Notes: generated by a model from the sequence alone, not told the origin. A DNA stretch of 64,000 nucleotides from an uncultured bacterium (GCA_903839725.1 CAIMDG010000002.1:305117-369116); one strand, 5' to 3'; shown: positions 1,762-64,000, counted from the first letter of the stretch. Numbers and translations: made by a program.

Positions 1762-3240
1762 ATGAAAAAAGTCGCAATTATCGGTGCTGGTCCTGGAGGT
1801 TTGTCAGCCGCAATGATTCTTGCGCATAAGGGGTTTGATGTTTCAGTTTACGAATCCAAATCTCATATTGGTGGTAGAAATTCAGCTCTCAAAGTAGGGG
1901 ACTTCACTTTCGAACTTGGACCAACGTTTGTCATGCTCCCAAAAGCTTTTGAGGAAGCTTTTGCGTTGGCTGGTAGAGACATGAAAAAATACGTCGAACT
2001 CAAGGAGTTGTCAGAAATGTATCGACTTCACTATTCTGATGGAAGAAATTTCCATGTGTATTTTGATAAGCAAAAAATCGAACAAGAAATTGTGAGACTA
2101 TTTCCTGATGATGTGGGGGCGTACGCACGATTTATGGCTACTCAAAAGATAAAGTTTGACCGACTCTATAAGTGTCTTACGGTTCCATATATGAGACCTT
2201 ACAATTATTTACGCCTAAAATTGTTGAAAGCACTCTCGACGATGGATATTGGTAGGAGTGTTCATGATGTTCTTTCAAAATATTTCAAAAATGAAGATTT
2301 GAAAATCGCGATGAGTTTCCAAGCAAAATACCTCGGCATGTCACCATGGGATTGTCCGGGGGCTTTTACGATACTTTCATATATTGAGCACCAGTTCGGC
2401 ATATATCACCCAATGGGTGGGGTACATAAGATTTGTGAGGCTATGCAGAAAGTTGCCGTTGAAGATGGAGCAAAGATTTTCTTGAATAGTCACGTGAAGA
2501 AAATATTGAGTGCAGACGGCGTTGCTACAGGTATAGAGCTTGCTGACGGAACGGTTGTAGAAACGGATCATATCATTATGAACACCGACTTTGCTCACGG
2601 CATGCTCAATCTCTTTGCGCCAGAGGAACGTGGCAAATATACAGAAAAGAAATTGAATACGATGAAATATTCCTGTTCTACCTTTATGTTGTATCTCGGT
2701 TTGGACAAGACGTATGATATGCCTCACCACAATATCTTTTTCAGTGCTGATTACAAGAAAAACGTCGATCAAATATTCAAGGACAAAATAGTGCCAGAAG
2801 ATCCTTCTTTCTACATTCAGAATGCTTCGGTAACTGATCCAACTTTGGCACCAGCAGGTAAATCAGCTATCTATGTACTTGTACCAGCACCAAATCTTTC
2901 CGGTGCGTATATTGACTGGGAAGTTGAGAAAAAAGTTCTGAGAGACAAGGTGATCGCTCTCATCAAAGAACGAACAGAAATGAAAGATATAGAGGCCCAT
3001 ATTGAAGTTGAAAGAGTTATCACACCAGCAGAGTGGGAAAGTGGCATGTATGTTCACAATGGGGCAGTGTTCAATCTTGCGCATTCGCTTGATCAGATGC
3101 TCTACCTGCGTCCACACAATAGGCTCAATGGTTACAAGAATGTATATCTAGTTGGTGGAGGAACTCACCCCGGAAGTGGTTTGCCAACTATTGTAGAGTC
3201 GGGAAGAATTGCTGCGAATCTTATTGAAAATATAGTTTAA
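1762..3240 (+). CDS. phytoene desaturase (CrtI)-family FAD-dependent oxidoreductase
   Basis: N-terminal dinucleotide fold VAIIGAGPGGLSAA..YES. C-terminal GGGTHPGSGLPTIVESGRIAA typical of the CrtI family. 492 aa. Confidence 0.7.
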   Translation: MKKVAIIGAGPGGLSAAMILAHKGFDVSVYESKSHIGGRNSALKVGDFTFELGPTFVMLPKAFEEAFALAGRDMKKYVELKELSEMYRLHYSDGRNFHVYFDKQKIEQEIVRLFPDDVGAYARFMATQKIKFDRLYKCLTVPYMRPYNYLRLKLLKALSTMDIGRSVHDVLSKYFKNEDLKIAMSFQAKYLGMSPWDCPGAFTILSYIEHQFGIYHPMGGVHKICEAMQKVAVEDGAKIFLNSHVKKILSADGVATGIELADGTVVETDHIIMNTDFAHGMLNLFAPEERGKYTEKKLNTMKYSCSTFMLYLGLDKTYDMPHHNIFFSADYKKNVDQIFKDKIVPEDPSFYIQNASVTDPTLAPAGKSAIYVLVPAPNLSGAYIDWEVEKKVLRDKVIALIKERTEMKDIEAHIEVERVITPAEWESGMYVHNGAVFNLAHSLDQMLYLRPHNRLNGYKNVYLVGGGTHPGSGLPTIVESGRIAANLIENIV

Positions 3241-3253
3241 GTTAATTTTGTTG

Positions 3254-4012
3254 TCAGAAGAACAATAAAATCAACGCCAAAAGTAGAAGTCCAACATCAA
3301 CTCGTCTACGAACCTTTATAACAAGTGTATCTTTCTTGATATACAGTAGCCCCCATACTATAAACACTGAGCCGATTAATGTTAGGGGAGTAATTTCTAT
3401 AGCTAAAATACAACCGATAATAAGTGATGCAGCTGATGCAATACGAGCAAAAGTATCGCCGAGAATTATTGGTGTTGTCTTTTTATAACCAGTATCAACT
3501 GATGTGTCAGCAATGTCGTGTAGCGTTTCTCGGCCAAAGATTATTAAAGCGGTAGTGACGAATGGAATCAGAACGGTATCTATGTGTGCACCAAGCGTCA
3601 AAGGTATAAGTATCGGACTTGCTGATGTCACAGTAACAAGAGTTACAGATAAGAGTGGTACTCTGCGTGCTTCAGAATACAAAGCTCCAATGAGTGCCAT
3701 ACCAAGTAACAATAATCCCGTTGCCAATTGTTGAAACAAAAGTGTTGTAATCAATGCGCAACATATAACCCAGAACAATAGTAACCATGAAATGTACAAT
3801 TTTGGATTACTACTAGCAAAACTTTTACCTTTTCCTATGTCGTGTGATCTATCACGCCAATCATTTTGAAGCATCGTAACTGCAATTACAAAGAAAAGAG
3901 TTGTGAGGATCAAAGCATGTACAGATATACCAGAATGCTTAAATCCGATAATACCAAGTATTACAATGAGTATACATTCTGGTAAGCGGATAGATTGCAG
4001 TAAACCAATCAT
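3254..4012 (-). CDS. UbiA-family aromatic/isoprenoid prenyltransferase
   Basis: Polytopic membrane protein with NDWRDRSHD (NDxxDxxxD) and a second Asp-rich motif HDIADTSVD. Convergent with and 14 bp from the CrtI-like gene. Confidence 0.65.
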   Translation of the reverse strand: MIGLLQSIRLPECILIVILGIIGFKHSGISVHALILTTLFFVIAVTMLQNDWRDRSHDIGKGKSFASSNPKLYISWLLLFWVICCALITTLLFQQLATGLLLLGMALIGALYSEARRVPLLSVTLVTVTSASPILIPLTLGAHIDTVLIPFVTTALIIFGRETLHDIADTSVDTGYKKTTPIILGDTFARIASAASLIIGCILAIEITPLTLIGSVFIVWGLLYIKKDTLVIKVRRRVDVGLLLLALILLFF

Positions 4013-15440: not shown

Positions 15441-16335
15441 TATTCAGATTACACAATCAAGTGAAGGCTATGAACTCATCGACTCTGGTGATGGTGAAAA
15501 ACTCGAGCGTTTTGGTGCAGTTGTACTTTCTCGACCAGATCCTCAGGCTTTATGGAAAAAAATGTTGCCTGAGAGTGAATGGAAAAAAGCACATGGTCAT
15601 TTTGGGAGAAGTGGTACACCTCTTCCAGGGAATGAAGAGCGGGGGAGTTGGACACTGAAGACCGATGTTCCAGCAAAATGGGAGATACCTTTTGGTGGGT
15701 TGAAACTATGGATCAAACCAACTGCATTCAAGCATACGGGTCTTTTTCCTGAGCAATCCAAGAATTGGGAGTGGATGGAGGGTAAAATTAAATCTCAAAA
15801 ATTACATCTTAAAAATGATGACATCGAAGTCCTCAACCTTTTTGGCTATACCGGTGGAGCATCACTCGCATGTGCGCAAGCTGGTGCGAAGGTTGTTCAT
15901 ATAGACAGTTCGAAAGCTGCCGTAAATTGGGCACGTGAAAATGCCGAGGCTTCAGGACTCAAGGATTTACCAATTCGTTGGATTATAGAAGATGCACGAT
16001 TGTTTGTTGAACGTGAAATAAAGCGAGGAAGGAAATATGATGCCATTCTCATGGATCCCCCAGCATTTGGTCATGGTCCAACTGCAGAATTGTGGAAAAT
16101 TGAAAATAACTTTTTGGAACTTATTGAAAATTGTATGAAATTGCTCAAAGATGCACCAGTATTCTTTTTGATCAATGGATATTCTGCCGGATATTCAGCA
16201 ATTGCGTATGAAAATAATTTACTTGAATTGAAAGAGAAGTATGGAGGTAGTATTGAAATAGGGGAGTTGGCTATCGAAGAAACCAAGAATAAGCGTTTGT
16301 TACCATCTGGTATTTTTGCAAGGTGGTCAGCTTAA
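15406..16335 (+). CDS. class I SAM-dependent (rRNA) methyltransferase, RlmI/RlmK-like
   Basis: LNLFGYTGGASLACAQAGAKVVHIDSS (motif I) and ILMDPPAFG (motif IV). Confidence 0.6.
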   Translation: MIVQHHSMKTSNIQITQSSEGYELIDSGDGEKLERFGAVVLSRPDPQALWKKMLPESEWKKAHGHFGRSGTPLPGNEERGSWTLKTDVPAKWEIPFGGLKLWIKPTAFKHTGLFPEQSKNWEWMEGKIKSQKLHLKNDDIEVLNLFGYTGGASLACAQAGAKVVHIDSSKAAVNWARENAEASGLKDLPIRWIIEDARLFVEREIKRGRKYDAILMDPPAFGHGPTAELWKIENNFLELIENCMKLLKDAPVFFLINGYSAGYSAIAYENNLLELKEKYGGSIEIGELAIEETKNKRLLPSGIFARWSA

Positions 16336-19937: not shown

Positions 19938-20483
19938 ATGACTAAACAACACACCACAGGTGAGCGTTCATGGTATGCCATTCATACCTATGCAGGCTAT
20001 GAAAATGCTGTTGCACGCAATTTGAAGCAACGTATTGAGTCTCTCGGCATGGAGGGTAAGATTTTCAATGTTATTGTGCCCACCGAAAAGAAGATCAAGG
20101 TCAAAGCAGGCAAGCGCGTTGAAGAGGAGGAGAAGATCTATCCTGGATATGTGCTCGTTGAAATGATTGTGACCGATGATTCATGGTATGTTGTTCGCAA
20201 CACTCCACGCGTTACCGGTTTCGTTGGTGCAGGAGTTTCCCCAGTCCCACTCGATGCAAAGGAAGTTGAATCACTCTTTGCTCGAATGAACAAGGGTAAC
20301 ACCGAACACACGATTGACCTTGGAATAGGGGATCTGGTCAAGGTGGCCGATGGTCCATTCAAGGACTTCGAGGGTAAGGTTTCAGAGGTTGATACACAGC
20401 GCGGTAAAGTAAAAGTCCTTGTCTCAATGTTCGGTCGTGAGACACCAGTAGAACTCGATTTTCTGCAGGTGAAGAAAGTGTAG
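19938..20483 (+). CDS. nusG: transcription termination/antitermination factor NusG
   Basis: WYAIHTYAGYENAV (NGN domain) and C-terminal KOW GDLVKVADGPFKDFEGKV. Confidence 0.9.
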   Translation: MTKQHTTGERSWYAIHTYAGYENAVARNLKQRIESLGMEGKIFNVIVPTEKKIKVKAGKRVEEEEKIYPGYVLVEMIVTDDSWYVVRNTPRVTGFVGAGVSPVPLDAKEVESLFARMNKGNTEHTIDLGIGDLVKVADGPFKDFEGKVSEVDTQRGKVKVLVSMFGRETPVELDFLQVKKV

Positions 20484-20488
20484 TGTCT

Positions 20489-20584
20489 CGATGCAAATAC
20501 GCAAATGTATGCGAATGACACGAATACATCGCACAGCTTCTTGGATTTATTCGCGTCATTCGTGTTCATTCGTAATTTGCATCG
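20489..20584. repeat. iteron-built palindromic element, copy A (between nusG and rplK)
   Basis: Arms GATGCAAATACGCAAATGTATGCGAATGACaCGAATA / TATTCGCGTCATTCGtgtTCATTcGtAATTTGCATCG around a variable centre. Each arm is made of tandem NNGCRAAT octamers. Copies also at 54351-54457 and 61309-61415. Confidence 0.7.
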
Positions 20585-20626
20585 GCACCTTGTATAAACC
20601 ATTAAGTTAGTATAATATCCATTATC

Positions 20627-21049
20627 ATGGCAAAAAAGATTGTAAAACAAGTAAAAGTTATCGCCCCTGCCGGAAAGGCAACCCCAGCTCCACCACTCGG
20701 TCCTACACTCGGTCAGGCCGGTGTTAACATTGGTGATTTCACCAAGAAGTTCAATGAAGCTACAAAGAACATGATGGGAGACATGATCCCTGTTCTTATT
20801 ACCGTCTATGAAGATCGTTCATATGATTTCGTACTCAAGACTCCTCCAACATCAAGTTTGATATTGAAGGCACTTAAGCTCGAAAAGGGTTCAGGTAAGC
20901 CAAATACTAACAAGGTTGGTACTCTCAACAAGGCTCAGCTCAAAGATATCGCAGAGAAGAAGATGCCTGACTTGAATGCTAACGATGTTGAAGCTGCAAT
21001 GAAAGTTGTTGCTGGTACAGCACGTCAGATGGGAGTAGATGTGAAGTAA
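20627..21049 (+). CDS. rplK: 50S ribosomal protein L11
   Basis: [47 protein letters not shown]. Confidence 0.92.
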
Positions 21050-21082
21050 TCTTAAATTTCAAATTTTAAATCTCAAAAATAA
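21050..21082 (+). repeat. A-rich AAATyTCAAA repeat, intergenic copy
   Basis: TCTTAAATTTCAAATTTTAAATCTCAAAAAT directly after the rplK stop. Same family as the four in-frame copies in ileS. Confidence 0.55.
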
Positions 21083-21106
21083 CACCGGAGACGGTGTTAT
21101 TTTTAT
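21083..21106 (+). terminator. rho-independent terminator after rplK
   Basis: AACACCGgagaCGGTGTT followed by ATTTTTAT. Confidence 0.65.
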
Positions 21107-31031: not shown

Positions 31032-34000
31032 ATGTCAGTAGAAATTCCAGACAAAAAACCAAAATCACCTAATGCGGAGCGTGAAGAACGTATTCTTTTG
31101 AGTTGGAAAGAAAAAGATATTTTCAATAAAACTCTAACTAAACCTGCACCCAAAGGGGAATTCGTTTTTTTTGAAGGTCCTCCAACTGCCAATGGTCGCC
31201 CCGGAATCCATCACCTCGAAGCGCGTGCATTCAAGGATGCAATACCTCGTTACAAAACGATGCAAGGTTTTTATGTGCGTCGCAAAGGAGGTTGGGATAC
31301 TCACGGTTTGCCCGTTGAACTCCAAGTAGAAAAAGAGCTTGGTCTCAAATCAAAAAAGGAAATCGAGAATTACGGTATCGCCGCATTCAATGATAAGTGT
31401 AAAGAAAGTGTTTGGAAATATGTCCATGAATGGGAAGACTTCACCAATCGCATGGGATACTGGGTTGATCTCAAGAATCCATACATCACCTATAAGTCTC
31501 AATATATTGAAGCAGTATGGAATGTCATCAAGACTGCAGATGATAAGAAGTTACTCTATAAAGACTACAAAGTAGTACCATGGTGTCCGCGTTGTGGAAC
31601 AGGATTATCTTCACATGAATTGGCACAAGGGTATGAAGAAGTAAAGGATTTGACGTTGTACGTTAAATTCAAAATTAAATCTCAAATTTCAAATCTCAAA
31701 AATGAAGCACAGGGAGATACATATTTTTTGGCATGGACAACAACACCGTGGACGCTTCCGGGAAATGTGGCATTGGCAGTAGGGAAGGATATTGAATATG
31801 TGAAGGTTAAAACAGGTGAATTACTTTCACCAGAAGCTTCTTCACCTAAAGGTGGTAAAGGTGTCGATATGGAAGCGGCATTTATTCGCGGTAATAATAA
31901 GGATGATATTTATTTAATTCTTGCAAAAGAGCGTTTGAGTGTACTCAAAGATGTTCAGCATGAAATTGTTGAAACAATAAAGGGCTCTGACCTTGTCGGA
32001 CTTTCCTATGAGCCACTATTCTCATTCTTGAAAGACAGCGTGACAGGGGAGCAGAAAGATAAACTTTCACATGCATTCAAAGTATATGCGGGTGATTTCG
32101 TCACCACAACCGACGGTACAGGTATTGTGCACATCGCCCCAATGTATGGACAAGACGATTTTGAGCTCGGTACAAAAAATAATTTGCCAAAATATCATCT
32201 CGTAAATGATGACGGCACGTTCAAAAAAGAATGTGGCTTTTTGGCTGGTAGATTCGTCAAAGAGAAAGATGCTAATGGTAAACCAACCTTGGATGTTGAT
32301 GTGGTTAATTATCTCAAAGAAAAAGGATTATTCTTTGCTCAAGAAAATTATAAGCATACATATCCTCATTGCTGGCGCTGTCATACACCACTTATCTATT
32401 TTGCACGTGATTCATGGTATATCCGCATGTCATCACTTCGAGATGAGCTCGTTAAACAAAATGAAGGTATTCATTGGGAACCTGAACATATCAAAGAAGG
32501 ACGTTTCGGTGAATGGCTCCGCGAAATCAAGGATTGGGCAATTTCACGTGAGCGTTATTGGGGAACACCATTGCCAATCTGGTCATGTGAAAAATGTCAT
32601 GCACGAAAAGTTGTTGGTTCAGTCGATGATCTCAAACGTCCTGCAAAGAATACGTATTATGTGATGAGACATGGTGAGTCGACAGGTAATATTGAAAGGG
32701 TTTTGAATAGTAGTATAACCGCGCAAGTTTCTCTTACTGATACTGGTAAAGAGCAAGTAAAAAAGTCCGCGCAAGCTTTGAGAAAGATATCATTTGACTA
32801 CATAATCGCTTCTCCTCTTGTGCGCACCCAAGAAACAGCACATATTGTAAAAAATGAACTCGGTCTTACTGATAGTCAGATGATTACGGATGAACGTCTA
32901 GTCGAACTCGGTCTTGGTCCATGGAATGGAAAACCTGTAGATGATTTTCTTGATGCGTATCCAGTCGCTAGTCGCTTTGAGAAGACTATTGAAGGTGTAG
33001 AATCGTATGTTGATCTCAAAAAACGCGTTGGCGGTTTTCTCTATGAGTGTGAGAAAAAATATGAGGGCAAAACTATTCTTATCGTTACTCATGGTTCTCC
33101 TGCTACATTACTTGTGGCTGTGACACAGGGAATGAATCATGAACAAACTATTTCCTACGAAGAAGAACATTTCCTCGGTAATGCTGAAGTTCGTCCTCTT
33201 CAATATACCGTTTTTCCACATAATACTGAGTATGAACTCGATCTCCACCGACCATTCATCGATGAGGTAACCTTTGCATGTTCGTGTGGAGGAGTAATGA
33301 AGCGTGCAAAAGAAGTTATGGACGTCTGGTTTGATTCTGGAGCTATGCCATTTGCGCAAGATCACGAGATGAAATCTCAAATCTCAAAAATCAAATCTCA
33401 AAACTTCTTTTCAAAATTATTCGGTAAGGAATCAAAGATGTTATATCCTGCCGATTTTATTTCAGAGGCAATTGACCAGACTCGTGGATGGTTCTATACA
33501 CTTCATGCTATTGGTGCAATCATGGGGAAGGGTAAGGCGTACAGGAATGTTATTTGTCTCGGACATATTCTCGATGCTGAGGGTAAGAAGATGTCCAAGT
33601 CTGTAGGTAATGTGGTGAATCCATGGGACATGATGGATCTTTACGGTGCTGATGCATTACGTTTTTGGATGTATTCGGTCAATCAGCCAGGTGACTCAAA
33701 GAATTTTGATCAAAAAACAGTTGATGAGGTGGTGAAGAAAGTATTTAACTTGGCTTCAAATGTTCTTTCGTTCTATAAGATGTACGAAGATACATCTCAA
33801 AAATCAAATCTCAAAAATCAAATCAAATCGCAAAACGTACTGGATCAATGGATCATCACACGATTGGATGAAGTTATTGAGACGGTCACAAAAGGACTTG
33901 ATGGGTATGTATTCTTGGAACCTACACGTACTATCCGTGATTTTATCGCTGATCTATCACAATGGTATCTTCGCCGTTCACGCGATAGATTCAAGGGTGA

Positions 34001-34619
34001 TGATGAAGCTGATAAACAAGCAGCACTAGAAACAACAAAGTATGTATTGATAACTTTGGCAAAAGTTATGGCACCATTCACACCGTTCTTTGCTGAATTT
34101 ATGTATACAGAAACTGGTGGTGAAAAGGAAAGTGTTCACCTCGAGGAGTGGCCAGAAGCAGGGAAGGTTGATGCGAAACTTATTGCCGACATGAATATTG
34201 TTCGAAGTCTTTCTTCGAAGGGTCTTGAGGCAAGAATGAAGGCAAAAATAAATGTGAGACAGCCACTCGCAAATCTTAAATCTCAAATTTCAAATCTCAA
34301 AGATTTAGCACCGGAACTTATTGATCTCATAAAGGATGAAGTAAATGTAAAAAATATCGTATTTGAAGGAGCACTTACAACTGAAGTCGAGTTGGATACA
34401 ACTATCACTCCAGAGCTCAAAGAAGAAGGTGATGTTCGTGAACTCATCCGTTCTATTCAAGATTTGAGAAAAGAAAAAGGTCTGTCTGTAGGAGATAAAG
34501 TATCTATTACTGTCCCAGAATCAAATCGTGCCTTGGTTGAAAAATATGGCCATGAAATCAAGAAGACAACAGGTCTCATCGATATCAAGGTCGGTGATAG
34601 CTTGAGTATCATCGCGTAA
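31032..34619 (+). CDS. ileS: isoleucine--tRNA ligase carrying an inserted histidine-phosphatase domain and four short in-frame repeat insertions
   Basis: Canonical IleRS blocks: PPTANGRPGIHH (HIGH), AWTTTPWTLPGN, WGTPLPIWSCEKCH, DLHRPFIDEV..CSCGG, DVWFDSG, QTRGWFYTL, KMSKSVGN. 1195 aa is about 150-250 aa longer than typical. Confidence 0.92.
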   Translation: MSVEIPDKKPKSPNAEREERILLSWKEKDIFNKTLTKPAPKGEFVFFEGPPTANGRPGIHHLEARAFKDAIPRYKTMQGFYVRRKGGWDTHGLPVELQVEKELGLKSKKEIENYGIAAFNDKCKESVWKYVHEWEDFTNRMGYWVDLKNPYITYKSQYIEAVWNVIKTADDKKLLYKDYKVVPWCPRCGTGLSSHELAQGYEEVKDLTLYVKFKIKSQISNLKNEAQGDTYFLAWTTTPWTLPGNVALAVGKDIEYVKVKTGELLSPEASSPKGGKGVDMEAAFIRGNNKDDIYLILAKERLSVLKDVQHEIVETIKGSDLVGLSYEPLFSFLKDSVTGEQKDKLSHAFKVYAGDFVTTTDGTGIVHIAPMYGQDDFELGTKNNLPKYHLVNDDGTFKKECGFLAGRFVKEKDANGKPTLDVDVVNYLKEKGLFFAQENYKHTYPHCWRCHTPLIYFARDSWYIRMSSLRDELVKQNEGIHWEPEHIKEGRFGEWLREIKDWAISRERYWGTPLPIWSCEKCHARKVVGSVDDLKRPAKNTYYVMRHGESTGNIERVLNSSITAQVSLTDTGKEQVKKSAQALRKISFDYIIASPLVRTQETAHIVKNELGLTDSQMITDERLVELGLGPWNGKPVDDFLDAYPVASRFEKTIEGVESYVDLKKRVGGFLYECEKKYEGKTILIVTHGSPATLLVAVTQGMNHEQTISYEEEHFLGNAEVRPLQYTVFPHNTEYELDLHRPFIDEVTFACSCGGVMKRAKEVMDVWFDSGAMPFAQDHEMKSQISKIKSQNFFSKLFGKESKMLYPADFISEAIDQTRGWFYTLHAIGAIMGKGKAYRNVICLGHILDAEGKKMSKSVGNVVNPWDMMDLYGADALRFWMYSVNQPGDSKNFDQKTVDEVVKKVFNLASNVLSFYKMYEDTSQKSNLKNQIKSQNVLDQWIITRLDEVIETVTKGLDGYVFLEPTRTIRDFIADLSQWYLRRSRDRFKGDDEADKQAALETTKYVLITLAKVMAPFTPFFAEFMYTETGGEKESVHLEEWPEAGKVDAKLIADMNIVRSLSSKGLEARMKAKINVRQPLANLKSQISNLKDLAPELIDLIKDEVNVKNIVFEGALTTEVELDTTITPELKEEGDVRELIRSIQDLRKEKGLSVGDKVSITVPESNRALVEKYGHEIKKTTGLIDIKVGDSLSIIA
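31677..31703 (+). repeat. in-frame A-rich repeat copy 1 in ileS (encodes KSQISNLKN)
   Basis: AAATCTCAAATTTCAAATCTCAAAAAT. Confidence 0.6.
32655..33239 (+). other. histidine phosphatase (phosphoglycerate-mutase superfamily, branch 1) domain embedded in IleRS
   Basis: YYVMRHGESTGN (RHG catalytic His), SPLVRTQETA, DERLVELGLGPWNG, ILIVTHGSP (second His). Flanked by IleRS residues ...DDLKRPAKNT and EYELDLHRPF... Confidence 0.75.
33372..33404 (+). repeat. in-frame A-rich repeat copy 2 in ileS (KSQISKIKSQN)
   Basis: AAATCTCAAATCTCAAAAATCAAATCTCAAAAC. Confidence 0.6.
33793..33836 (+). repeat. in-frame A-rich repeat copy 3 in ileS (SQKSNLKNQIKSQN)
   Basis: CATCTCAAAAATCAAATCTCAAAAATCAAATCAAATCGCAAAAC. 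Confidence 0.6.
34271..34302 (+). repeat. in-frame A-rich repeat copy 4 in ileS (NLKSQISNLKD)
   Basis: AAATCTTAAATCTCAAATTTCAAATCTCAAAG. Confidence 0.6.
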
Positions 34620-46957: not shown

Positions 46958-46960
46958 GAT

Positions 46961-47045
46961 TAAATTACAAATTAAAAATAACAAATCCAAAAATCAAGCA
47001 TCATAATATCAAAGATATGCAATTGTTTATTTTTGAGATTTGATA
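46961..47045. repeat. A-rich repeat family, forward copy then reverse-complement copy (rpsF-ssb intergenic)
   Basis: TAAATTACAAATTAAAAATAACAAATCCAAAAATCAAGC ... TTTTTGAGATTTGATATTTGAGTTTTGAATTTT. Confidence 0.45.
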
Positions 47046-47070
47046 TTTGAGTTTTGAATTTTATTACACT

Positions 47071-49192: not shown

Positions 49193-50266
49193 CTATATCG
49201 CTTTTAACTTCTCTCTAATCTTCGCAAGAATCTCGTCTCTCACTGGGAGGTTTTCCTTCAAGAATTGTCTCGTCGCATCATAGCCACGACCCAACTTCAC
49301 CTCACCATATGAATATGAAGAACCTGACTTTGAAAGTAATTCCATCTTTTCACCAAGAGCGATGATTTCGCCTTCTTGAGAAATACCTTCGTTGTACATG
49401 AGGTCGAACTCTGTTTGCTTGAATGGGGCAGCGACCTTATTCTTGACGACTTTGACACGACAGCGACCACCCATGATCTCTTCACCTTTTTTGATCTGGG
49501 CAATACGACGGATATCAAGACGAACTGAGGCATAGAATTTGAGAGCCTTACCACCTGGGGTAGTCTCAGGATTGCCGAACATCACACCGATCTGCATACG
49601 GATCTGGTTGATGAAAATAACAACAGTCTTTGAACGTGCAACAATTGCAGTCAATTTGCGGAGTGCTTGTGACATGAGACGAGCTTGAGTTCCGACATGG
49701 TACGCACCCATGTCTCCCTCTATTTCAGCTTTCGGGGTGAGGGCAGCGACTGAGTCGATAACGACAACATCCATCTTGTTGGTACGAATAAGACTGTCGA
49801 CGATATCAAGTGCTTGTTCACCGTGGTCTGGTTGAGAAATAAGTAAATCATTTATTTTGACTCCAAGACGAGTTGCGTACTCTGGATCCATCGCATGTTC
49901 AGCATCAATGTATGCACACACACCACCGAGCTTCTGAGCTTCAGCGACGACGTGGAGGGCGAGAGTAGTCTTACCTGATGATTCAGGTCCAAATATTTCA
50001 ATAATACGACCACGAGGCATACCACCGATACCAAGTGCAGCATCGAGACCGATAGATCCGGTAGGGATAGCATTTACATTAACTTTAGGTTTTTCTCCGA
50101 GCTTCATGATCGAATCCTCACCGAACTTCGTACGAATTGCAGCAAGAGCATCTTTGATGCCTGTTTGGGAATGTGCACTGTTAGATTGTTTTGATGTTTC
50201 TGATTCTGTTTCAGTTAGAGCATCTTCTTCACTGACTTCTGGCTTTTTGTGTTTTTTGATTGCCAT
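49193..50266 (-). CDS. recA: recombinase RecA
   Basis: [36 protein letters not shown] (Walker A), [37 protein letters not shown]. Confidence 0.95.
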
Positions 50267-50954: not shown

Positions 50955-53228
50955 TTAGAGTTCAGACTCTTCCTGAACTGGTTCGCTCGGACCTTGCTGT
51001 TCTATTCCTGTACCAACACCACCGATGATGTCACGAGGCTTTGAACCATTTGCAGGACCGATGACACCATGACCTTCGAGTAAGTCCATAAGTTTTGCTG
51101 CACGAGAGTAGCCAATACCGAGTTTACGTTGCAAGAATGAGGTGGAAGCCTTGTTCGCTTCTATCACAGCTTCACGTGCTGGTTCATAGAGCTCATCTTC
51201 TTCATCGAGAGAGTCGCTACTATTCATCGCATCGAATGCTGCCATTGCGCCAGCTTCGGTAGGAGTGAGGTTGATTTCATTCATGATCTCATCTTTGTAT
51301 TCAGCCGCGAGATATTTCACAACGTCTTTCACTTCCTTTTCACTGATGTATGCAGATTGCAAACGCACAGGTTTTGACATTTCACCACCGAGGTAGAGCA
51401 TGTCTCCGGCTCCGAGAAGGTTTTCTGCACCTGGCTGATCGAGAATGGTACGAGAATCGATCTGTGATGATACTTGAAGAGCAACACGAGTAGGGATGTT
51501 TGCTTTGATAAGACCGGTAATAACATTCACACTCGGACGCTGAGTTGAGATGATGAGGTGAATACCGACGGCACGACTCATTTGAGCAAGACGAACGATA
51601 GCTGATTCCAATTCACGAGGATATGTCTGCATAATATCCGCCAATTCATCAATAACGATAACGATGTACGGCATTGTTTCAGGAAGCTTCACATCATCTG
51701 TTGGGCTGCCATCATTCTTCCATTTTTCAAGCGCTGGGGCCAAGATGTTCTTGTGATATGAATCAATATCACGAGCAGAATTCTGTTCGAGTATGTCATA
51801 ACGGCGACTCATCTCCTTGGCACCCCATTTGAGGGCAAGGATGGCCTTCTTGGGGTCAGTGATGACCGGTGTGAGCAGGTGAGGGGTTTTGTTGTAGAGT
51901 GTCAATTCAACACGCTTTGGGTCAATCATGATGAACTTAAGGTTCTCTGGGGAGTTGCGATACAAGAGAGAGGTAATGATGGCGTGAATGGTCACAGATT
52001 TTCCTGAACCAGTAGTACCGGCGATCAGCATGTGAGGAGCTTTGGCAAGATTGGCAAAATGAGCTTTTCCGGCGATGTCTTTTCCGAGAGAAGTGAGGAG
52101 TGGTTTTTCTGAACCCTGATAATCTTGTGAGGCAAGAAGGGTAGCGAGACCGACAGTAGTCTTTGAAGTGTTCGGTACTTCGATACCTACGAGTGACTTG
52201 CCAGGTATTGGAGCTTCGATACGAATAGGGTGAGCAGCGAGGGCAAGAGCAAGATTACTACTCAATCCGGTGATACGAGAAAGTTTAACTCCTTCAGCTG
52301 GTTTCAATGCATAACGAGTCACTGATGGACCAATCGATATCTCATCCATTTCAACGGTAACGCCGAAGTTTTGGAAAGTTCGTTTGATGATGTTTGCGTT
52401 GGCTTTGATATCTCCAGTTTCAGGTTTGCCACGATCCTTCTCAAGTAATGAAAGTGGGGGAGGGGTGAACGGTTTGAGATGAGGTACAACAACTGATGAT
52501 GCGAATGCACTTTCTTCAGCATCACTAAAATCAAGGGTGCCTTTTTTCTTTGCTTTTTCAGCTGCACGTTTCTTTTCTTCGGCAGCGACACGTTGTAGCT
52601 CGATCTGTTTTGCAGAGAGAGTCTCTGTTTCAGATGAAGCCATTCCCGCAACAGCTTTTTCGACTGCGGCTTCTTCGTATGCATCCATCTTTCCATCTTT
52701 AGCTTTAGGTATTTCTTTTTTGTCTTTCTTTAGTTTTTTCCAGATCGCAATATCGTCAAAAGTAAAATACAAATTGAACGTCATGATCACTGAGATGATG
52801 AGAAGTGCTACAAGGAGACATGTTGTCGCGGGAGTATCGAGCATCTTGATGAGAGGGACGGCGATCCATCGTCCAATAACTCCTCCTTCATTGTAGGAAG
52901 CGATGTGTATTGTGCCGAGACCAGCGATGAAGAAAAGTATTACACCGATAATTTTTGTTGCTTCAAGCTTCTTTTTAATTCCCTGCAAGAATGAGATACC
53001 GAGCATCAGGAAAACAACTGGTATAAGGAAATATCCGATACCAAATAATCGAGTAAAAAAGGTATATCCGTATGCCCCTATTGGTCCCGCTTTTCCGAAC
53101 GCAGCTAATAATGATAATAGTGTTAATAAAAATGAGAGAATTGCGAGAATTGCCTGAATCGTTTCATCGCGCATATTGTCCCAAAATCGCATTTTTTCTG
53201 TAATATCTAGATCTTTTTTCTTTGCCAT
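50955..53228 (-). CDS. ftsK: DNA translocase FtsK/SpoIIIE
   Basis: Four N-terminal TM helices, linker, motor domain with HMLIAGTTGSGKSV (Walker A), C-terminal gamma-domain winged helix. Confidence 0.9.
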   Translation of the reverse strand: MAKKKDLDITEKMRFWDNMRDETIQAILAILSFLLTLLSLLAAFGKAGPIGAYGYTFFTRLFGIGYFLIPVVFLMLGISFLQGIKKKLEATKIIGVILFFIAGLGTIHIASYNEGGVIGRWIAVPLIKMLDTPATTCLLVALLIISVIMTFNLYFTFDDIAIWKKLKKDKKEIPKAKDGKMDAYEEAAVEKAVAGMASSETETLSAKQIELQRVAAEEKKRAAEKAKKKGTLDFSDAEESAFASSVVVPHLKPFTPPPLSLLEKDRGKPETGDIKANANIIKRTFQNFGVTVEMDEISIGPSVTRYALKPAEGVKLSRITGLSSNLALALAAHPIRIEAPIPGKSLVGIEVPNTSKTTVGLATLLASQDYQGSEKPLLTSLGKDIAGKAHFANLAKAPHMLIAGTTGSGKSVTIHAIITSLLYRNSPENLKFIMIDPKRVELTLYNKTPHLLTPVITDPKKAILALKWGAKEMSRRYDILEQNSARDIDSYHKNILAPALEKWKNDGSPTDDVKLPETMPYIVIVIDELADIMQTYPRELESAIVRLAQMSRAVGIHLIISTQRPSVNVITGLIKANIPTRVALQVSSQIDSRTILDQPGAENLLGAGDMLYLGGEMSKPVRLQSAYISEKEVKDVVKYLAAEYKDEIMNEINLTPTEAGAMAAFDAMNSSDSLDEEDELYEPAREAVIEANKASTSFLQRKLGIGYSRAAKLMDLLEGHGVIGPANGSKPRDIIGGVGTGIEQQGPSEPVQEESEL

Positions 53229-54331: not shown

Positions 54332-54350
54332 GATTCGAGATATAAAGAAT

Positions 54351-54457
54351 CGATGCAAATCTGCAAATGATCGCGAATGACGCGAATGCGTCGCATCCTA
54401 CTCTAGATTCAAGTGAGTTTATTCGCGTCATTCGCATCCATTTGCGTATTTGCATCG
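54351..54457. repeat. iteron-built palindromic element, copy B
   Basis: CGATGCAAATCTGCAAATGATCGCGAATGACGCGAATG ... TTATTCGCGTCATTCGCATCCATTTGCGTATTTGCATCG. Confidence 0.7.
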
Positions 54458-54973
54458 CATATTTTGGGACTTCAATAAAAATAGGGTTTTTTCTTGACTT
54501 TTGACCCTAAATGGCTTAATATAGTCCTATTATCAATAGTAACTAAATAGAGCCATAATTTGCCTAAATCTCAGCATATTTGTGTTATCCACATGTCCTT
54601 TTGCCAGAGTGTGTAATTTCGCGTTATAATGCTTTGTATCGAGTGCGATTCTTGCCTACCCAGGTTCGAACTGCATTCGTCCCAGAGCAATAGTGCTTCG
54701 GGGAGTACGAACTTTGACAAATCAATAAAACGTCAAGTTCGATCGTTCATTATTGAATGATTGATTTCAGACATATTCGAAATATCTTTATTGATATGGA
54801 GATAGTTTGTTTTCAGTTTATCAATAATTTGTTTTGCCACAATATCTTGTATGTGCGTGTCGATACAACGTGCGTTCAAGGTGTGGAATTATTATTAGTA
54901 TTACAAAATTGCATTCATTCTCTATCTTTATTAGTAAACAGAGGACATGCATTAAATTACAAAAAAAATTCGT

Positions 54974-60171: not shown

Positions 60172-60564
60172 TTATTTGAACTCAACCTTTCCGCCTGCTG
60201 CTTCGATCTGCTTCTTCAAAGCTTCTGCATCTTCCTTCTTCATACCATCCTTGAGGAGAGTAGGAGCGGCATCAACGAGATCCTTTGCTTCCTTGAGACC
60301 AAGGGCAAGAACTTCCTTGACGATCTTGATAACAGCAATCTTTGTTGCACCTGATGATGCGAGGTGTACTGCAACAGTACTCTTCTCATCACCGGCTGCT
60401 GCTGCGGCTACTGGAGCGGCAACTGCTGTAGCTGCTGCTGAAACGCCGAATTTCTTCTCGAAGAGCTTAACGAGCTCATTCAAATCGAGGACCGACATAG
60501 TTTCAATCGCTTCAACGATTGATTTGAACTTTGCTGGAATTTCTACTGGTGTGTTATTTTCCAT
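60172..60564 (-). CDS. rplL: 50S ribosomal protein L7/L12
   Basis: [26 protein letters not shown], Ala-rich hinge, C-terminal [11 protein letters not shown]...GGKVEFK. Confidence 0.92.
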
Positions 60565-60583
60565 GTTTTTATAAATTAGTTAA

Positions 60584-61072
60584 TTATGCTTTCTTCTGTG
60601 CAATCTTATCGAGTGCGACAACCAATCCTTGGATAGGTGAGTTGATGACATTGACGAACATACCGTAGAGAGTTTGAACTGGAGGAATTGATGCGATAAC
60701 AGTCATTTCTTCTTTGTTCATGAACTTTCCTTCGAATACGCCGCCGACGATAGAAACCTGACCTTTGTATTTCTTTTCAAATTCGTACACGCCACGTGCA
60801 GGAGCAACGAGATCTACGCCATATGCGAGACCAAATTCTCCAACGAGAGCGGGTGCAGTACCTGTGTACTTCTTATTTGTTAATGCAATAGAGGTGAGGG
60901 TCTTCTTTGCAACGAAAAATCCAACCTTGTCTGCACGCAACTTGCGACGCATAACTGTTGAATCCGAAACCTTGAGTCCGTGGACGTTCACAAAGACGAG
61001 TGACTGAGCACCGCCCATGATCTTTTCCAATTTCTCAATGATCTCTTTTTTCTGAACTTTTGTTCGAGCCAT
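60584..61072 (-). CDS. rplJ: 50S ribosomal protein L10
   Basis: KKEIIEKLEKIMGGAQSLVFVNVHGLKVSDSTVMRRKLR. Confidence 0.9.
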   Translation of the reverse strand: MARTKVQKKEIIEKLEKIMGGAQSLVFVNVHGLKVSDSTVMRRKLRADKVGFFVAKKTLTSIALTNKKYTGTAPALVGEFGLAYGVDLVAPARGVYEFEKKYKGQVSIVGGVFEGKFMNKEEMTVIASIPPVQTLYGMFVNVINSPIQGLVVALDKIAQKKA

Positions 61073-61308
61073 ATGTTGTTAAATTACAAATTTCAAATAT
61101 CAATTTTCAAACCAGCATTTAGATGTGGTTTGTTTGAACATTGGAATTTGGTTTTTGATATTTCTAGTTGCCTTGGGCAACTGGTTCGACCTTTTATAGG
61201 CCTAATAGAGATGAATACCTCGGAAGGTCTTGTATCCTTATATAAGGATTGCCTTCTGTCTTAGAGCCTTGGGAACAATATTACATGAATTTTGATTAAA
61301 CGCAAATT

Positions 61309-61415
61309 GATGCAAATACGCGAATGTATGCGAATGACGCGAATAGAACGCACAGGAATCGAAAGTCGGATGCGACGTATTCGCGTCATTCGCATACATT
61401 TGCGTATTTACATCG
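61309..61415. repeat. iteron-built palindromic element, copy C (upstream of rplJ, divergent region)
   Basis: GATGCAAATACGCGAATGTATGCGAATGACGCGAATAG ... GTATTCGCGTCATTCGCATACATTTGCGTATTTACATCG. Confidence 0.7.
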
Positions 61416-62908: not shown

Positions 62909-62983
62909 TAGTCTCGTCTTTCGTATGTAAACAAAAAACAACTCTATAATACGAGTTGTTTTTTGTTGGTACGCTAATGTTAA

Positions 62984-63121
62984 AATTCCAAATAACAAGC
63001 ACCAAATGACAAATAAATTACAAACTACAAATTTCAACTTCTAAACCTTGTTAAATGGGTTTGGAAATTATGATTTTTGTATTGGTTATTATTTGTCATT
63101 TGGTGCTTGTTATTTGGAATT
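62984..63121. repeat. perfect 33-bp inverted repeat with 72-nt spacer
   Basis: AATTCCAAATAACAAGCACCAAATGACAAATAA (62984-63016) and its exact reverse complement (63089-63121). Confidence 0.8.
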
Positions 63122-63166
63122 TCTTGTCCACAGACTATCCACATGTAAGATAATAATAGAAAGGTA

Positions 63167-63194: not shown

Positions 63195-63579
63195 TATCCT
63201 CACTACCGAATGAATACAAGAAATACCCAATCACAGCGGCCATAGCCACACCCCGTCATTGGAGTGTTAAGCATGCCGCTCAATGAAGCGGTTTTTTCTT
63301 TTCAGAACGACAGAAACTTTGAAAACCACATATACTCAATCAAGTAAGGTTTGTGTGTGATGAGTAATTGCACACAAACAAAACGTACACGTCTCTCCGC
63401 CAACCGGCGGAAAGGGATGTGTACGTCATCCGCATTCGTTCGGGTCGAATGAATGCGGGCAGTTCATACGCTGTGAAGTGTATGAGCGAAGTAATGTAGG
63501 TATTTCTCGAAAGAGAAAATAGCATTCTGATGCAAATCAGAGTGCAAGAAAACAAAATGCGGTTTTTAAATTTCCTAAT

Positions 63580-64000
63580 AGGAAATTAAGGGCGTATGGT
63601 GGATGCCTTGGCTTCATGGAGGCGATGAAAGACGCGGCGTGGCGGCGATACGCTTCGGGGAGGTGCCGAGCAACCTTTGATCCGAAGATGTCTGAATGGG
63701 GAAACCCCACCGAGTAAAACTTGGTGATCTAACACTTGATGTTAGAAGCGTACCCTGGGAAGTAAAACATTTCAGTACCAGGTGGAAAATAAACAAATAT
63801 GCATTCCGTGAGTAGCGGCGAGCGAAAGCGGAGATAGTCTAAACTTATTGTAGCAATACAATGAGGGTTGCAAGGTAGAGACGTACCATTTATGGTAGAG
63901 AAGTTACAAATCTTTTTATTAATCGAATGAGTTGGAAAGCTCAGCCCCAGAAGGTGATAGCCCTGTAAGTGAAAATAAAAAGACTTCTTTGTTTCTATTC
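63580..64000 (+). rRNA. rrl: 23S ribosomal RNA, 5' portion (continues beyond window)
   Basis: GGTGGATGCCTTGGC, GGCGATGAAAGACGCGG, GAATGGGGAAACCCC, AGTAGCGGCGAGCGAAAGCGGAG align with the universally conserved 23S 5' domain I. Confidence 0.92.

Follow-up and report, generated by a model that had tools for sequence, protein, structure and literature searches.

Why should one essential gene carry the same short A-rich sequence four times in frame, and why should that sequence turn up again in noncoding DNA beside ribosomal-protein genes? The question is raised by ileS, the gene for isoleucyl-tRNA synthetase (IleRS), in 64,000 nucleotides of DNA from an uncultured bacterium (GCA_903839725.1 CAIMDG010000002.1:305117-369116), a stretch referred to here in its entirety as the window. 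An earlier description made from the nucleotides alone (the sequence-only reading) had noted the motif and proposed a small mobile or recombinogenic repeat. The follow-up analysis indicates that the motif is probably a heptanucleotide simple sequence repeat (SSR) array, (AAATCTC/AAATTTC)3-5, that arises by slippage or misalignment on A-rich seeds, is copied in short patches and is filtered by selection. It would then be a by-product of repeat mutation and not a new mobile element. The host gene and its four arrays are the following.

31032-34619, plus strand: ileS, encoding IleRS (1195 aa), host of four arrays; identified by its open reading frame (ORF), its homologues and the match to solved IleRS
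31663-31703, plus strand: site 1 array TTAAATTCAAAATTAAATCTCAAATTTCAAATCTCAAAAAT, coding (KFK)IKSQISNLKN, in the linker that joins the Rossmann fold to the CP1 editing domain; net gain of 9 aa
33370-33405, plus strand: site 2 array AAATCTC AAATCTC AAAAATC AAATCTC AAAAC, coding KSQISKIKSQN, following DVWFDSGAMPFAQDH
33792-33835, plus strand: site 3 array coding TSQKSNLKNQIKSQN, in the linker that joins the catalytic domain to the anticodon-binding domain; from Tandem Repeats Finder (TRF) and alignment to orthologues and 8c8w
34269-34302, plus strand: site 4 array coding ANLKSQISNLK, at the junction of the anticodon-binding and C-terminal domains; from TRF and orthologue alignment

The ileS product aligns with the solved IleRS structures 8c8w and 1ile, and PF00133, PF08264 and PF00300 are present in the 120 homologues among the matches listed. 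Its best homologues belong to Patescibacteria, class Paceibacteria, with a top match that is 77-80% identical overall and 81-97% identical in conserved segments. Judged by these similarities, the window comes from a Paceibacteria bacterium (Patescibacteria, or Candidate Phyla Radiation, CPR) near Taylorbacteria.

The A-rich motif resolves in TRF into a 7-nt unit, AAATCTC or AAATTTC, repeated head to tail in 3-5 copies, and a period of 7 or 14 was returned at all sites. The 27-mer AAATCTCAAAWWTCAAATCTCAAAAAT occurs without mismatch at 31677 and with one mismatch each at 33379, 33792 and 34278, always on the plus strand and inside ileS. Elsewhere in the window it is found at 47029 on the minus strand (one mismatch), 21054 (two) and 15790 (three), and dinucleotide-preserving shuffles contain no match to it. 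The 10-mer AAATCTCAAA occurs 11 times in the window against 0.7 expected. AAAT is spaced by 7 nt at five loci, by 5 nt at one and by 6 or 8-11 nt at none; the shuffles have no period-7 locus. Chance or plain AT-rich low complexity, the latter named in the sequence-only reading as one finding that would undo it, is ruled out as the source of the motif by the shuffles, the word counts and the specificity for period 7. Altogether, the window holds about 10 arrays in 64 kb, or about 0.15 per kb.

Three AAATYTC heptamers make up 21 nt and code for KSQISNL, and an array traverses all three codon phases every 21 nt. The shared reading frame that had been remarked upon for the four ileS copies thus carries little meaning, and the best 27-mer match at site 2 lies in phase 1. 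The peptides quoted for these copies are correct by translation. The positions first given for them (31677, 33372, 33793 and 34271) correspond to the 27-mer matches for the first and, within one nucleotide, the third, whereas 33372 and 34271 are starts of arrays. A pure forward array has no stop in any of the three frames and its reverse complement has stops in all three, as had been claimed, which explains why arrays in genes are found in the forward orientation. The coding copies are 27-44 nt long, their unit is G-free, and they have no hairpin potential: each of the four ileS copies has 0-2 G and a minimum free energy of 0.0 kcal/mol. Inspection of the sequence flanking 128 arrays and codon-level comparison of orthologues showed no terminal inverted repeats or target-site duplications.

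The four sites differ in what the array has done to protein length. At site 1, the array begins at native KFKI seed codons and lengthens the linker by 9 aa relative to both the closest orthologue and 8c8w. The site 2 loop, located after the CP core of IleRS, is 14 aa longer than in 8c8w and 16 aa longer than in the closest orthologue, P0001. Its length equals that of P0002, which has an AAGATCC array there, and is similar to that of P0013, which has an AAAAGTC array. Site 3 matches 8c8w in length and also P0002 (locus L002), in which an orthologous AAATCTC-type array is present; the array terminates in the conserved KSQN codons AAATCGCAAAAC. Site 4 is identical in length to the closest orthologue, with KSQISN in place of SSTIPS, and aligns without gaps to 8c8w. 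By these alignments, sites 1 and 2 are net insertions, and at sites 3 and 4 an existing linker has been refilled without a change in length, so that the proposed four insertions are reduced to two. The same linkers carry different heptamers in orthologues, and the closest orthologue has no array at sites 1 and 2. Sites 1 and 4 have 26 identical nucleotides in common, although the seeds next to them are different.

All four sites fall in hypervariable, gap-rich columns of an alignment of 24 IleRS orthologues, which bears out their earlier placement in variable linkers. An AlphaFold2 model built from the same number of aligned sequences (mean predicted local distance difference test score, pLDDT, 62.6; predicted template-modeling score, pTM, 0.36) was used for local secondary structure only. 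It was too poor for mapping surface exposure, and the sequence alignment to 8c8w was relied on instead. In this low-confidence model, site 1 is assigned as coil by DSSP, and site 3 is coil between helices 894-918 and 936-957. A fifth IleRS linker (residues 1042-1046, window positions about 34155-34175) is array-free in the window and occupied in L003, L146/L148, L147 and L162.

The concentration of the motif in ileS, which had been called striking, is real: of the window's five coding copies, four are within one 3.6-kb gene (approximately P = 1e-4, an estimate). A survey of 84 related loci (1.39 Mb), among them 80 Paceibacteria ileS loci beyond the three nearest, accounts for it. Period 7 is the most enriched short period in this DNA, with 157 arrays against 26 in shuffles. 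At a TRF score of at least 50, period 7 accounts for 28 arrays and period 14 for 15, and periods 8, 9 and 12 yield no more than 4 each. Of 110 arrays with a score of at least 36, 57 are inside ileS, which makes up 30% of the DNA surveyed. Within ileS, arrays cluster at query residues 215-227, 785-787, 924-929, 1042-1046 and 1085-1089, which correspond to the window's four array sites and the array-free fifth linker, and have more than 20 different units; 39 are heptamer-based, 14 have periods divisible by 3 and 6 are of other kinds. Nine period-7 arrays, with the units AAGATTC, AAAAGTC and AAAGCTC, are found in the 23.6-kb syntenic locus of P0013 (L003), five of them in ileS and two in argS. 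The ileS arrays of L002 are AAAGGAA, AAGATCC and AAATCTC. No array is present in 23 syntenic kb of the closest relative, L001. The concentration in ileS therefore reflects four or five unusually tolerant linkers that are hot spots throughout Paceibacteria.

Arrays of the same unit extend far beyond this clade. The exact 24-mer AAATCTCAAAWWTCAAATCTCAAA was found in at least 120 loci (L004-L123) in a scan of 185,579 GTDB species genomes, in hosts ranging from 31% to 69% GC. At least six phyla are represented among the matches listed: Planctomycetota, Verrucomicrobiota, Bacteroidota, Acidobacteriota, Desulfobacterota and several Patescibacteria. Pfam-confirmed in-frame hosts include a class I aminoacyl-tRNA synthetase, RsmB, LysA, a P-type ATPase, GH3, PolX, 6-phosphogluconolactonase, PSCyt2 and DnaE. 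In-frame AAATCTC/AAATTTC arrays are seen, for example, in L005, L061, L063, L070, L100 and L119, and the LysA host is the isolate Pedobacter terrae DSM 17933. UvrA (L070) was identified as a host by eye only, without a Pfam match. These loci hold 274 period-7 arrays, about 125 of which are other heptamer arrays with about 100 different units. Array lengths peak at 25-27 and 31-34 nt, step by 7 nt and reach 133 nt. Some genomes carry several copies of the 24-mer, such as JAEWKR01 on 4 contigs.

About 20% of arrays lie within 80 nt of a gene start compared with 8% of random positions, and several adjoin the ATG (rpsD, purE, hisF and ppk). The two orientations are equally frequent there: among 128 arrays of other phyla, 25 in one orientation and 26 in the other are within 80 nt of a start, and 11 and 12 are within 20 nt. 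These counts argue against an orientation-specific leader and fit simple exclusion from coding DNA; a translation leader was accordingly rejected as a general role. A phage link was also rejected, with only 7 matches of the AAATCTCAAAWWTCAAATCTCAAA type in 2.9 million viral contigs. The recurrence of the 24-mer across phyla is probably due mostly to the low information content of a tandem repeat, which we estimate at about 7-9 independent nucleotides. Given many arrays per array-rich genome, recurrence across this number of genomes would not by itself need horizontal transfer.

Several of the cross-phylum loci have features of their own. In an Akkermansiaceae metagenome-assembled genome (MAG; L035, about 3395-3422, minus strand) and in Luteolibacter (L057, about 2107-2139, minus strand), the same pair of genes is separated by a spacer that consists entirely of the array. 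It is 39 nt long in one and 67 nt in the other, and the coding flanks are about 80% identical, so that either long conservation or a recurrent hot spot is indicated. In a 69% GC Verrucomicrobia genome (L054, 1900-2350, minus strand), the array is a module of a higher-order tandem repeat of about 137 nt; its other modules are the 8-nt arrays GGCCGGAG and GAAAAGCT, and GCCGGC palindromes stand on both sides of the A-rich array. In the Verrucomicrobiaceae loci L018, L046, L047 and L092, a conserved block of about 45 nt, GCCGCAGGCTCTGGACTGCTGGGAGAATCACAGCTC, comes after the array, and in the planctomycete MAG loci L032, L033 and L111 a conserved GC hairpin, TTAACCGCGTGGGCAACGCCCCGCGCTTTGTATTTC, comes before it. 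These conserved adjoining blocks mean that the arrays of the latter two groups belong to larger repeated units; Rfam gave no match there. A protein search with a 45-aa KSQISNL/KSQISNF repeat returned only 19 small spurious ORFs.

How such arrays come about is suggested by the codons at which they stand. The conserved K-F-K-I/V codons of site 1, AAR-TTY-AAR-RTT, amount to a 1.7-copy heptamer by themselves. In many lineages, the site 1 array continues these codons, and its unit follows local codon choice: AGATTCA in L003, AAATTCG in L184, AAATTCA/AAATCCA in L143 and AAGTTTA in L194. Point-mutated, decayed remnants occupy site 1 in the related lineages L134, L136 and L138. At site 3, the KSQN codons provide a comparable seed for AAATCNC. 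This pattern looks like the behavior of a locally generated SSR, with birth, expansion and decay. Turnover of the arrays is fast: between L133 and L140, whose DNA is 92% identical, the arrays of site 3 and of the C-terminal site differ entirely. Locus pairs that are 99.7-100% identical have identical arrays. Local generation is not the only process. Units are shared (at most 1 mismatch) by 32% of array pairs within a genome and by 8.6% between genomes (permutation P = 0.0005). Together with the 26-nt identity of sites 1 and 4, this sharing requires some templated copying between sites. AT-rich arrays in GC-rich genes and multiple copies per GC-rich genome again point to within-genome copying. 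Of the original proposal of a mobile or recombinogenic repeat, a repeat copied or homogenized between sites at the DNA level is thus supported, and a discrete mobile element is not.

We propose that the seed is A-rich DNA, coding or spacer, with a pre-existing approximate period of 7 nt, as in the K-F-K-I/V codons of site 1 and the KSQN codons AAATCNCAAAAY of site 3. The seed would be expanded and regularized through replication slippage or transient misalignment. Arrays within a genome may then be copied or homogenized by short-patch templated events, either gene conversion or template switching, and the window does encode RecA. Such copying would account for the few dominant units per genome and for the identity of sites 1 and 4. 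Selection would merely filter the outcome. In genes, only arrays in the stop-free, A-rich sense would persist, with a net length change divisible by 3 and in length-tolerant linkers, which in IleRS are domain junctions. In intergenic DNA, both orientations could persist and inverted pairs would make hairpins. The KSQISNLK-type peptides would be passengers, a short hydrophilic filling of linkers without a function of its own.

Several points weigh against this account. Slippage by a single 7-nt unit would frameshift an essential gene, so in-frame birth needs three-unit steps, templated changes of equal length or the import of a ready-made array. Slippage also gives no mechanistic reason for period 7, and no copy-number polymorphism is seen between strains that are 99.7-100% identical. 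Sharply bounded AT-rich AAATCTC arrays are found within genes of 59-69% GC genomes, where growth from local seeds is impossible and some copying or insertion step is needed. Finally, a test for a conversion tract at site 4 gave 9 differences in 22 nt against a 21% background, a marginal result (P = 0.02).

The copies outside ileS also bear on the explanations that have to be weighed.

15784-15816, plus strand: degenerate array of period 14, 3 mismatches to the 27-mer, in frame, coding KIKSQKLHLKN, in an S-adenosylmethionine (SAM)-dependent methyltransferase gene
21048-21080, plus strand: array directly 3' of the rplK (L11) stop, then an intrinsic-terminator-like hairpin at 21075-21104 (-16.5 kcal/mol, z -5.1)
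46960-46994, plus strand: A/C-rich heptad arm AAATTAC AAATTAA AAATAAC AAATCCA directly 3' of the rpsF stop; 5' hairpin arm
47029-47061, minus strand: reverse array, reading TTTGAGA TTTGATA TTTGAGT TTTGAAT on the plus strand; 3' arm of the rpsF-ssb hairpin
61079-61165, no strand assigned: weak hairpin (z -2.7) with the heptad-like 5' arm AAATTAC AAATTTC AAATATC AATTTTC, adjoining the rplJ start
62983-63122, no strand assigned: near-perfect 140-nt hairpin (-68.8 kcal/mol, z -14.5) with CAAAT every 7 nt in its arms, upstream of 23S

The sequence-only reading had described near-identical copies at all the noncoding positions and a partial copy in the methyltransferase gene. The description fits 47029 on the minus strand and 21054. 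The sequences at 61076-61110 and 63010-63050 are merely heptad-like hairpin arms; the hairpins at 61079 and 62983 are related in style to the arrays and are not copies of the 27-mer. The methyltransferase copy, at 15790, is degenerate. The A-rich arm that had been placed upstream of rplJ does adjoin the rplJ start, but rplJ (L10) is on the minus strand with its start codon at 61072, and the arm is therefore antisense to the rplJ leader. The reverse array at 47029-47061 stops 10 nt short of the ssb ATG (47071), and with the A/C-rich arm it makes up the arms of a hairpin at 46958-47065 (-24 kcal/mol, z -3.5). Only intergenic inverted pairs fold; coding arrays do not. Rfam, applied to the window and to 18 array-rich loci, gave no family that overlaps an array, and no L10 leader was matched. 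The hairpin at 62983-63122 has an uninterrupted stem of 34 bp and lies about 450 nt upstream of the 23S rRNA gene (from 63576).

Could the arrays instead be a tiny insertional element, a ready-made (AAATYTC)n block of about 25-35 nt that is placed by a dedicated mechanism (transposition, retro-insertion or templated repeat synthesis) and spreads horizontally, with effects like those of Rickettsia palindromic elements (RPEs)? The identical 24-mer in at least 120 loci of at least six phyla, the sharply bounded in-frame AT-rich blocks in conserved proteins of GC-rich genomes, the several copies in genomes such as JAEWKR01 (4 contigs), the length peaks at 25-27 and 31-34 nt and the 26 identical nucleotides of sites 1 and 4 would all suit such an element. 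However, the arrays showed neither fixed ends nor terminal inverted repeats or target-site duplications; their lengths change in 7-nt steps up to 133 nt, and they grade into native codons. Many unrelated heptamers occupy the same sites in related genomes, and the cross-phylum loci contain about 125 other arrays with about 100 units. The estimated information of 7-9 nt in a tandem 24-mer makes transfer unnecessary for its recurrence, and 2.9 million viral contigs gave only 7 matches. We regard this explanation as improbable. A broader version, in which heptad arrays are the product or target of dedicated and widespread machinery (an enzyme that makes or pastes 7-nt repeats, or a protein that reads heptads) and so a cross-bacterial micro-element that lands time after time in the same protein linkers and in spacers beside start codons, in at least six phyla, seems to us just as doubtful. 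If it were true, CPR IleRS would be a recurrent landing pad, and this process would be a main source of the unusual insertions in CPR proteins.

A cis-acting role is unlikely too. In such a role, the heptads would be read by a protein with a 7-nt step per subunit, or would act as an unstructured, G-free translation leader or a DNA-uptake signal, and copies within genes would be tolerated extras. Candidate readers would be a ribbon-helix-helix repressor of the omega type (operator WATCACW, compared with AATCTCA here), a cold-shock-domain protein or ribosomal protein S1. The enrichment near gene starts, with some arrays directly at an ATG, the intercistronic spacer filled by the same array in two Verrucomicrobiota genera (L035 and L057) and the position of the intergenic window copies next to rplK, rpsF/ssb, rplJ and 23S are what a regulatory signal might produce. 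TAACTGA arrays, moreover, lie just upstream of start codons and have S1, Csp and CsrA as proposed binders (PMC4679880). But exclusion from coding DNA alone would yield the enrichment, and both orientations are equally frequent near starts. Units are extremely diverse between lineages and even within one genome, the closest relative has no array in its 23 syntenic kb, neither the window nor the 18 array-rich loci have an array overlapped by an Rfam family, and about 0.15 per kb is lower than the density of uptake sequences. The protein or RNA recognition motif that had been offered as an alternative is therefore not favored. Least probable is selection at the peptide level, by which K/S/Q/N-rich segments would be favored as flexible or tRNA-contacting IleRS linkers and the DNA repeat would be incidental. 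It could draw on the location of arrays at domain junctions, on the likeness of K-x-Q-x-S-x-hydrophobic peptides from different units (KSQISNL, KSQKSKV and KIQDSRF) and on the case of Borg tandem repeats, argued to be selected for making disordered regions (PMC9879509). Yet the likeness follows from the common AA...TC skeleton of the units, unrelated peptides such as KGKRKKE and the LESRI type occur at the same sites, and the arrays cover only about 1.5 peptide periods. The same DNA is found in noncoding regions in both orientations; identity is observed in DNA, and the peptide changes whenever the unit changes. The closest orthologue, which has no array-type insert at sites 1 and 2, is presumably functional.

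Known systems offer close comparisons. Among the long SSRs of bacteria, heptameric ones are the most over-represented, and polymerase-footprint slippage has been proposed for them (Mrazek 2007, as summarized in PMC4679880 and PMC4692102). Described families include the short tandemly repeated repetitive (STRR) sequences of Calothrix and Anabaena, GGGAATC in Xanthomonas and GGGGAYT in Nostoc (PMC4692102). As in those families, the arrays described here have at least 3 tandem 7-nt units, an excess of period 7 within the lineage, lineage-specific units, and direct or inverted intergenic arrangements able to form stem-loops (PMC4692102). The known arrays are G-rich and essentially intergenic, whereas AAATYTC is G-free, A-rich and CPR-hosted, and half of its window copies are in frame in genes. 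TAACTGA direct repeats, with 2-6 units, occur in marine Beggiatoaceae, cyanobacteria and some Bacteroidetes; they resemble AAATYTC in reaching distant phyla, in lying a few nucleotides from start codons, including those of ribosomal-protein operons, and in having one orientation closed by stops in three frames and the other readable, so that a few copies are located within ORFs (PMC4679880). However, TAACTGA is orientation-biased upstream of genes and AAATYTC is not. In addition, TAACTGA copies within ORFs are rare, peripheral and mostly in hypothetical proteins, in contrast to AAATYTC in essential conserved enzymes at recurrent internal linkers. Borg repeats are likewise fast-evolving, locally arisen tandem repeats that add low-complexity peptides (PMC9879509), but their coding units are divisible by 3, whereas the 7-nt unit keeps frame only through total array length.

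The arrays fit other classes less well. They lack the terminal inverted repeats and target-site duplications of miniature inverted-repeat transposable elements (MITEs) and transposons. They are also unlike phase-variation SSRs, in which changes in unit number switch dispensable, usually surface, genes: here essential or housekeeping genes act as hosts (IleRS, ArgS in L003 and, by eye, UvrA), and the arrays are in frame with 3-5 units. RPEs, as Ogata and co-workers are said to have described them in 2000, are palindromic elements of 100-150 bp with a conserved consensus. The arrays share with RPEs their presence both in intergenic DNA and in frame at permissive positions of conserved or essential genes, where they add surface peptides and function is kept; this holds in other phyla as well. 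The analogy drawn at first fails in other respects, because AAATYTC arrays are tandem heptamers of 25-45 nt (27-44 nt for the coding copies) that have neither a discrete 100-150 bp consensus nor a hairpin-forming palindrome; the copies have zero folding energy and no defined termini or duplications, they grade into native codons, and orthologues carry other heptamers. DNA uptake sequences (USS/DUS) of Pasteurellaceae and Neisseriaceae are single words of 9-12 nt that occur about once per kb and are conserved within a family. They too lie in permissive regions and preferred frames of genes, form inverted intergenic pairs and have lineage dialects. The present arrays differ in being tandem and of many units, at about 0.15 per kb, with no conserved 9-12-nt core shared by relatives and none in the syntenic region of the closest relative. 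No account of the AAATYTC family or its peptide turned up in string searches of the literature, and a search on CPR and tandem repeats likewise brought up none. The arrays thus belong to the known heptanucleotide SSR class; what is new is the G-free unit, the CPR hosts and the repeated occupation of the same essential-enzyme linkers despite frame incompatibility.

Other features of the window were recorded in passing. A complete histidine-phosphatase domain (PF00300) is inserted in the catalytic core of IleRS at residues of about 540-730 (window 32650-33222), and this insert is common to all 120 homologues among the matches listed. It is 44% identical to that of the closest orthologue, compared with 81-97% for the remaining protein, which suggests either very fast divergence or a swap. 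Arrays as the joints of a mosaic ileS were considered and rejected: the segments between arrays are all closest to P0001 (81-97%), the phosphatase insert excepted, and this segment-wise comparison gave no sign that arrays mark recombination boundaries. A second dispersed repeat, a palindromic element of about 110 nt, has two intergenic copies (54345-54465 and 61290-61415) that are 81% identical. Its arms are made of short units of the GCGAATG/GCAAAT type, and its hairpins reach -53 and -64 kcal/mol (z -7.4 and -9.7). It is nearer to a repetitive extragenic palindromic (REP)- or MITE-like element than the heptamer arrays are. The minus strand encodes recA (49193-50266) and ftsK with a gamma domain (50955-53228), so homologous recombination is available to this reduced genome. 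The pair nusG-rplK (19938-21049) is not followed by rplA, and rplJ-rplL (60172-61072) is 40 kb away on the opposite strand. The 23S rRNA gene (63576-64000) has no 16S gene upstream within the window, and no tRNA gene is present in the 64 kb.

The poorly understood class of heptameric SSRs is hereby extended to Patescibacteria. The AAATYTC unit family recurs in frame in conserved enzymes of many phyla, including those of the cultivable Pedobacter terrae, Chryseobacterium caseinilyticum and Danxiaibacter flavus, and such carriers make the bacterial preference for 7-nt repeats testable. For annotation, KSQISNL-type segments should be treated as repeat-derived passengers and not as functional motifs. 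In ileS of Paceibacteria, the same four or five linkers are refilled again and again by 7-nt repeats that do not fit the reading frame, and such repeats outnumber codon-compatible ones by about 3 to 1. They provide a concrete source, at the level of DNA, for the lineage-specific insertions of CPR proteins.

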